Source of the DNA: Cyanophora paradoxa CCMP329
Lineage: Eukaryota; Plantae; Glaucophyta
Assembly (NCBI GenBank): GCA_004431415.1
Contig: QPMI01000160.1
Coordinates: forward strand, 1-64,000
Length of the DNA: 64,000 nucleotides
Direction: 5' to 3'
Shown: in pieces, positions 6,820-7,443 of the stretch
Layout: every line of letters starts with the position of its first letter
Numbering within the stretch: the stretch's first letter is position 1
The notes under the pieces: model-generated
The model's input: the letters and a program-made list of their open reading frames with translations, nothing else
Told to the model about the DNA's origin: nothing
The model's database searches: none
Made by a program: the position numbers and the translations under genes

Positions 6820-7443
6820 CTATTCTGATTGATCGCCAGGAAGGTACATGCTCGACTTCCGGGATGATATCCCTCCTCGCGACGTAATACAGATCTCCCG
6901 GGGATGGCCCCGGACTCGACGCCTGTGCACGCGCACCGTGAATTCGCGAGATCCGCATCAGAAATCACCGTAAGACGCAACAATCGCTTGCACCGGAGCT
7001 CGAAGTACCAGCCTGCTTGGTCGTACGAGATCGATACAGCACCAGCCCTCGAGGTGCACATGCGTACTGCAGTGCAGCTCCTCGAACGCCAGGTCCAGTA
7101 GCTCGCTCTTCCACGCATTCGAGTCCGAAGCACGGATCGTGACTCGCACAGGCCCTGCGCATGCGCTGTTGAGTTCACGGCACACTGGCAGAGCAACGGT
7201 GAATCGGTGTACATTTGCACCTGTCATGCAGTGACGCGTAGCGGGCAGGCCGGCAGTCGCCGAGAATGTGTACGTCAACAAAGCTGCCTTCGTTCTCGGG
7301 CCGCGGTCGTGGCGCGTAAAGAGCATTCAGTGCTTCCGACTCGCGACCTGCTCCGCTGTCGGCGGCCGCGGCCGCTGTGCGAGGTTCTTTCGAGGAGCTT
7401 TTCCGCCTGTAGACATACGCGCTCTCTCTTTCACTTTCGCCAT
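6820..7443 (-). CDS. H3-tail-like peptide (K9M) + putative beta-grasp domain protein, copy B (several 1-nt deletions)
   Basis: MAKVKERARMSTGGKAPRKNLA is 15/21 identical to H3 residues 1-21. It is followed by PTAEQVA/ESEALNALYAPRPRPENEGSFVDVHILGDCRP and the same two introns as the other copies. Confidence 0.7.

Follow-up and report, generated by a model that had tools for sequence, protein, structure and literature searches.

The window, by which we mean the whole 64-kb stretch of DNA analysed here, harbors at least eight paralogues of one gene family, copy B included, which lie on both strands between 4.8 and 19.7 kb (Table 1). Each copy combines a variable N-terminus and a conserved core with two GT..CAG stretches of 53-84 nt that contain a branch-like CT(A/G)A, and loose contig ends matching none of the window copies hint at further family members elsewhere. 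The N-terminal pieces of six copies can be compared with the tail of histone H3, to which they are identical at 15 of 27 residues in copy A, 15 of 23 in B, 10 of 12 in C, 7 of 10 in D, 14 of 15 in E and 5 of 6 in F. Copies A and B also have a 90-nt contig in common, present at double depth (7084-7173 and 5130-5220), and their tails differ at most synonymous sites, an apparent sign of gene conversion between the cores of the two copies.

Table 1. Paralogues of the family and predicted parts of copy B, in window positions
Feature	Positions	Strand	Basis
Copy A, sister paralogue; tail retains K4, K9, K27; TGC in intron 2	4843..5471	-	sequence comparison
Copy B, predicted exon 3, with final strand and C-terminal tail (uncertain stop position)	6794..6922	-	corrected frame
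Copy B, candidate intron 2, in frame, 72 nt after correction; TGA at 6960 in CTGAT branch-like site	6923..6993	-	sequence and copy D model
Copy B, predicted exon 2: strand-helix-strand-strand core of predicted beta-grasp domain	6994..7154	-	corrected frame, models
Copy B, candidate intron 1, 66 nt, GT..CAG, in frame, stop-free in B	7155..7220	-	matches host intron style
Copy B, predicted exon 1: tail, linker, first strand of predicted beta-grasp domain	7221..7443	-	open after three single-base corrections; core dN/dS 0.47
Copy B, H3-like tail from the start codon on, residues 1-23	7375..7443	-	H3 identity 15/23
Copy B, Met at H3 position 9 (K9M)	7414..7416	-	translation, phmmer, contigs of 4/4 DNA runs
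Copy C, tail like H3 18-29	10651..11282	+	sequence comparison
Copy D, start just ahead of K14 equivalent	11609..12249	+	sequence comparison; modelled
Copy E, tail like H3 14-28, 14/15	13889..14518	+	sequence comparison; modelled
Copy F, short tail remnant, start uncertain	17516..18165	+	sequence comparison
Copy H, partial (exon 2 to 3), approximate ends	18560..18900	-	sequence comparison
Copy G, divergent, without recognisable H3 tail, approximate ends	19100..19720	-	sequence comparison

Translation of 7443-7381 on the minus strand gives an H3-like N-terminus, and phmmer aligns residues 1-24 of copy B without a gap to residues 1-24 of histone H3 in the PDB (best E 2.3e-05). Counted from the start codon at 7443, the codon ATG at 7416-7414 (CAT at 7414-7416 on the plus strand) falls in exact register at H3 position 9, so that the methionine which the sequence-only reading had placed there is borne out by translation and by phmmer, with the contigs of all four DNA runs in agreement. 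The same reading had called the surrounding H3 context otherwise perfect. This is correct for positions 7-18, where 11 of 12 residues are those of canonical H3 and Met9 is the sole mismatch, but not for positions 2, 3, 5, 6 and 19. Along the whole tail, copy B differs from H3 at positions 2, 3, 5, 6, 9, 19, 22 and 23, with Lys at position 2 and Arg in place of Thr6, while Ala1, Lys4, Ala7, Arg8, Ser10, Thr11, Gly12 and Lys14 are retained. This likeness lies well beyond chance resemblance.

The methionine had been reported with the caveat that it might reflect drift or consensus error, in a copy marred by several 1-nt deletions. We checked the bases against Logan short-read contigs from four DNA runs (X1, X4, X5 and X10) of the 20 that, among 24 listed, cover the stretch; such contigs lose rare variants, and the runs possibly come from the same strain as the window. 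Contigs of all four runs span 7243-7537 or more with no other letter at any position, which rules out a consensus error at 7415. The ATG is kept, and the comparison shows that the Met9 base is genomic; fixation in the species is a separate matter. Across 4800-7700, no substitutions relative to the contigs of the four runs are listed, and there are 39 indels, of which all 12 listed are inserted bases.

In copy B (6830-7470), run X4 inserts one base behind each of positions 6935, 6996, 7025, 7046, 7226, 7242 and 7341; those behind 7226 and 7242 occur in all four runs, and the complete set of seven comes from the single run X4. With these bases restored the supposed deletions vanish as defects, and an open frame of 163 codons extends from 7443 as far as a TGA at 6960. 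Removal of the two predicted introns gives 172 codons, of which the last ~30 are uncertain because of a 1-nt gap relative to the paralogues near 6845 (the X4 alignment starts at 6841). Genuine frameshifts in copy B are ruled out, all seven being missing consensus bases according to X4, and a 38-residue peptide is ruled out as well, since the early stop that would end it disappears after the insertion behind 7341. A 6-nt insertion in exon 2 is in frame. The copy B gene is intact after correction of assembly errors. Among the 24 runs, none with RNA is listed as covering the stretch, and three of three presumed RNA runs gave no contig over copy B, a blank that speaks neither for nor against expression. 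On a wider scale, the window between 4800 and 7700, and likely throughout, misses single bases at ~1.3 per 100 (22 in 1650 bp), and frameshifts anywhere in the window are therefore suspect.

The sequences and the structure models together make it likely that the family genes contain two introns. The GT..CAG stretches match the intron style of ordinary genes in the same window, and copy E carries an in-frame TGA at the branch-like site of both candidate introns. Candidate intron 1 is disordered and the lowest-scoring stretch in the copy E model, and candidate intron 2 corresponds to residues 54-79 of the copy D model, where pLDDT is below 50 and the flanking strands and helix reach ~70. Against introns, however, candidate intron 2 is the best conserved part of the genes (86%), above the exons, and all of its lengths are multiples of three, with a dN/dS of 0.56. 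This stretch (6923-6993 and its paralogous counterparts) also shows 6-nt indels and an alternation of TGA and TGC, the TGA being present in seven of eight copies and copy A having TGC, an aligned Cys. A selenoprotein reading, with the TGA as Sec, is not favored on the sequence evidence; no SECIS element was matched in Rfam at E up to 5 over 4500-20500. A search for RNA structure in candidate intron 2 found compensatory change in none of 18 pairs.

Behind its tail, the corrected copy B reads on into the family core, without a histone fold, and the models of this core are mainly beta-sheet. Copy B is not a histone, and the oncohistone-like status given to it earlier has to be dropped for lack of a histone fold. 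The core matches no Pfam family in any of nine pieces, and a PDB sequence search with it gave no match at E up to 10, ubiquitin included. Two AlphaFold models, one of copy D that spans exons 2 and 3 with the TGA read through (mean pLDDT 60) and one of copy E from exon 1 on (mean pLDDT 45), both follow the beta-grasp order of elements. For both, the top 50 of 48,161 chains consist almost throughout of ubiquitin-like, RA, FERM-F0 and PB1 domains. The best match of the copy D model has a Z of 6.3 (rmsd 2.8, 75 aligned) and that of copy E a Z of 5.3 (rmsd 3.3, 80 aligned), the strand from exon 1 completing the domain in copy E; these are low-confidence models, and a Z below 8 may mean a mere common arrangement. 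Foldseek likewise ranked the same fold class first, at a non-significant E of 0.29 or worse.

It is thus likely, from models of this quality, that a ubiquitin-like (beta-grasp) domain stands behind the tail. In the models, five strands and a helix are ordered and packed much as in the PKD ULD (6ra0), RA, FERM F0, PB1 and TBCE Ubl domains (Z 4.1-6.3), a spread that singles out no one subfamily, whereas identity to these is only 4-17%, with no Pfam or PDB sequence match. Conjugated ubiquitin-like modifiers end in a C-terminal Gly-Gly, which the family core lacks, and the domain is therefore not expected to be a conjugated modifier.

Searches for relatives used exon pieces as queries, so that blanks are not proof of absence. 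No relative of copy D exon 1 was found among 16 candidates, an alignment search with exon 1 returned one canonical H3 only, and a weak search with the tail yielded no relative among seven candidates. No usable match was obtained in the Atlas and none in viral contigs. The one match among 1.84 billion representatives (P0001) is a 73-residue tandem repeat that scores 67.6 bits over seven stretches, and it was judged spurious. The family thus appears to be lineage-specific, in that exon-piece queries retrieved no relatives elsewhere.

The tail portion common to most copies is K14/K18-K27 and not K9. Position 9 can be aligned in two copies only, where it is Lys in A and Met in B. Met9 is private to copy B, four other tails begin later, and a search for other carriers of the ARMS motif accordingly ends with Met9 in one of the two family copies that have the position. 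The tails differ strongly among copies (48% nucleotide identity), with a pooled pS of 0.63-0.89 against a pN of 0.13-0.33 in six copies, lowest at positions 14-18 (pN 0.13). These are rough figures, since the tail segments were aligned by eye and picked for H3 likeness, the pairs are non-independent and copies C-H are uncorrected. Within that roughness they show tails that appear to be under purifying selection, with a protein-level likeness to H3 that has outlasted synonymous change. In the remainder of the gene, pooled codon-aligned dN/dS is 0.47 for the exon 1 core, 0.84 for exon 2 and 0.49 for exon 3, and indels are in frame. A cruder count by codon position found no third-position excess in the exon 1 core (0.35), exon 2 (0.32) or intron 2 (0.39), exon 3 standing at 0.45, which opposes strong coding constraint, whereas the codon-aligned dN/dS indicates a moderate one.

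The distribution of the tails raises the possibility that they serve solely to bring the ubiquitin-like domain into the nucleus, as a borrowed import signal. Position 9 would then lie outside the signal and be free to drift, and the ATG at 7416 may be a second start giving a short tail as in copies D and E. Importins are reported to bind H3 11-27, Kap123 having pockets for K14 and K23 (PMC7752055), and this is the stretch common to the copies and includes the lowest pN; moreover, the initiator Met of copies D and E stands two or three codons ahead of K14. However, Ala1, Lys4, Ala7 and Arg8, needless for import, are retained in register in both A and B (pS 0.89 against pN 0.33 over codons 1-13, a comparison of 13 codons only), and the ATG at 7443 carries a G at +4 and is preceded in the window by 257 nt free of any ATG. 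We therefore regard an import signal alone as unlikely.

Alternatively, copy B might be a duplicate that has fallen silent or is decaying, in an array with fast turnover, and Met9 would be neutral. The partial copies G and H, the strong divergence of the tails and the high dN/dS of exon 2 fit such a history, and so does the ease of the substitution itself. A single transversion turns AAG into ATG, which makes up 9-14% of all one-base steps from AAG that change the amino acid, and at the tail-wide rate of change the chance of a K-to-M replacement is 3-5% at one named site and 19-34% over eight sites, the family having seven aligned K4/K9/K27 sites; Met9 is thus only modestly beyond chance. On the other hand, all seven frameshifts proved to be consensus errors, the exon 2 insertion preserves the frame, and the start codon and splice-like signals are intact. 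In addition, no residue but Met9 departs from H3 within a block of 12, and the tail-wide rate therefore overstates drift there. A silent duplicate seems to us a very improbable explanation.

EZHIP is a known natural non-histone K-to-M inhibitor, acting on K27. The sequence-only reading suggested that copy B could be a trans-acting inhibitor of H3K9 methylation, a modification broadly conserved across eukaryotes (10.1101/2021.11.30.470311). Part of this idea has held up, in that the base is real, the gene is intact and the recognition residues are retained, but the histone fold is missing, Met9 occurs in one of two aligned copies, and Arg6 is unfavorable. In its strongest form, copy B would be a selected EZHIP-like inhibitor whose Met9 enters the channel for the lysine in a SET domain of the SUV39/G9a type with SAM bound, and whose ubiquitin-like domain may give a second contact like that of K14-linked ubiquitin. 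We consider this form doubtful, although it deserves to be taken seriously.

In its favor, copy B retains Lys4, Arg8, Ser10, Thr11, Gly12 and Lys14, which include the residues that SUV39H1/2 are reported to require (Arg8) or read (Lys4, Ser10, Thr11, Gly12), but at position 6 SUV39H1 prefers Thr, Ser, Ala or Tyr, so that Arg6 is outside its preference, and Thr6 matters for SUV39H2 (PMC8303541). A K9M peptide lowers Clr4 activity in vitro, and G9a orders residues 3-12 (PMC5030085). K14-linked ubiquitin increases K9M binding to Clr4, yet the affinity of K9M alone for this enzyme is low (PMC8167812), and stimulation by K14ub, described for SUV39H2, does not extend to G9a or plant SUVH4 (PMC8443253). 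Furthermore, the core domain lacks any sequence match to a solved protein, ubiquitin included (E up to 10). Finally, Met9 is confined to one copy and sister copy A has Lys9, whereas the EZHIP motif is described as absolutely conserved, and alone does not work in cells, where flanking regions are needed (10.1101/585729).

Comparison with known systems sharpens these points. The engineered H3K9M histone, a K-to-M oncohistone, has Met9 in an intact Ala7-Arg8-Met9-Ser10-Thr11-Gly-Gly-Lys14 at a true N-terminus (PMC5030085, PMC8167812), as does copy B, but copy B has no histone fold and so would not be incorporated into nucleosomes, and its positions 2, 3, 5 and 6 differ; in cells, the H3K9M histone is reported to need chromatin and K14ub to trap Clr4 (PMC5030085, PMC8167812). 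Like copy B, EZHIP (CXorf67) is not a histone and has Met in place of the target lysine, preceded by Arg (10.1101/585729). In contrast to EZHIP, the site in copy B is K9 rather than K27, the enzyme would be a different one, the two proteins are non-homologous, and the pseudo-substrate role of copy B is putative; the conserved EZHIP motif lies in a disordered chain, whereas Met9 stands in one paralogue ahead of a predicted folded domain. The H3 N-terminal mimicry proteins (H3TMs) resemble copies A and B in having a non-histone N-terminus in H3 register with Ala1, Lys4 and a Met-Ala start, from which Met would be removed, but they need Arg2 (PMC8166343), where copies A and B have Lys2. Unlike the 4-residue H3TM motif, the likeness of copy B continues as far as residue 21, and the tail looks as if it had been taken over from an H3 gene. 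The available text of PMC9768651 and PMC9145170 mentions no natural K9M case, and no natural K9M histone or mimic, nor any fusion of an H3 tail to a ubiquitin-like domain, was found in literature searched at title and abstract level, which covers subscription journals poorly.

A further step would be to regard the family as one-chain mimics of ubiquitylated H3 tails. Copy B would then mimic K9M together with K14ub, with Met9 plugging the SET active site and the tethered ubiquitin-like domain replacing K14ub, and would thereby inhibit SUV39/Clr4-type enzymes. We think it highly unlikely that this is so, but if true, such a mimic would be a genetically encoded H3K9 counterpart of EZHIP. The intact K9M-tail gene in any event offers a ready peptide and protein for asking whether evolution has made an H3K9 inhibitor.

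The reading that we tentatively prefer, at slightly less than even probability, is that copy B serves as a soluble decoy of the H3 tail, with Met9 a private change that is probably tolerated and not the purpose of the family. Splicing of the two introns would yield a protein of about 170 residues, and loss of the initiator Met would leave Ala1 at the N-terminus, as in H3. Importins (H3 11-27) could bind the tail, as could writers or readers of the H3 tail, and the beta-grasp domain may dock a partner. Each paralogue would offer a different piece of the tail, with K4, K9 and K27 in copy A, K14-K27 in copy E and an unmodifiable K9 site in copy B. With Met9, copy B would compete weakly as a pseudo-substrate of H3K9 SET enzymes in vitro, but for a decoy this would be incidental. 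Even with an incidental Met9, a multi-copy family that couples an H3 tail to a probable ubiquitin-like domain, and that appears to be under selection, would be an undescribed kind of histone mimic.

Natural K9M motifs elsewhere bear on both the decoy and the inhibitor. The same 12-residue K9M motif has arisen naturally at 21 metagenome loci (L001-L021) from several unrelated-looking lineages, 16 of them with a histone fold and none with the downstream domain of the window family. This recurrence speaks for the selected inhibitor, as a count of Met alone and not as a measure of its enrichment at position 9. K9M is also sporadic among ordinary H3 paralogues, being found in two of 11 members of one metagenome cluster, which agrees with the decoy. 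Against the decoy, a separate H3 lineage retains Met9 in eight of nine proteins under purifying selection, and this raises the prior for a selected K9M.

The lineage in question comprises full-length H3 genes (L001, L007, L010, L015, L017, L018 and L021; proteins P0003-P0005 and P0022-P0027), the ninth protein having Val, and no K27 equivalent is present. Between L001 and L021, pS is 0.21 and pN 0.04, about one-fifth of pS. From these sequences, the lineage looks like a better candidate than copy B for a selected natural K9M histone. L004, L006, L013 and L016 form a second full-length H3 group with natural K9M, L005 and L014 are single H3 genes with K9M, of which L005 adjoins an H4 gene, and L009, L019 and L020 carry K9M in three non-histone contexts. 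At L011 (280-660, minus strand), an H3-like gene has Met at both position 9 and position 27, in a frame that ends early, perhaps at an intron.

Among 27 H3 tails from viral contigs, position 9 is Lys in 24, Arg in one, His in one, Ala in one and Met in none. Three of these 27 tails (L024, L025 and L041) have a natural Arg26-Met27, that is K27M, and may be candidate viral PRC2 inhibitors; L033 has Ile at the like position and a non-histone continuation. The natural K9M alleles from metagenomes and the K27M alleles from viral contigs are open to the same testing as copy B.

Several other features of the window lie near the family or beyond it. An element of ~350 bp, 89% identical among its occurrences, is found upstream of copies E (13500-13860), F (16991-17350), C (10449-10544, part) and G (19712-20028), and unrelated ORFs head away from it on the opposite strand (12944-13537 and 16128-17030); it looks like a duplicated bidirectional promoter, as far as its arrangement can suggest. 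At 59100-64000 the sequence shifts suddenly to 40% GC, with a 46-nt inverted repeat (59107-59220), 36-nt tandem repeats, an intronless AdoMet decarboxylase gene (PF02675, phrog_3125) and two related ORFs. The ORF at 60533-61420 has no phage match, and the region resembles one end of a virus-like insertion. On the minus strand at 52946-56076, one or more intron-rich genes encode LRRs together with a TIR_2 domain and a SAM-like stretch. The layout recalls that of immune receptors, here in what is presumed to be a unicellular eukaryote. Tandem arrays occur at 8177-8800, upstream of copy B (~102 nt x 6), and at 23053-24067 (130 nt x 8).
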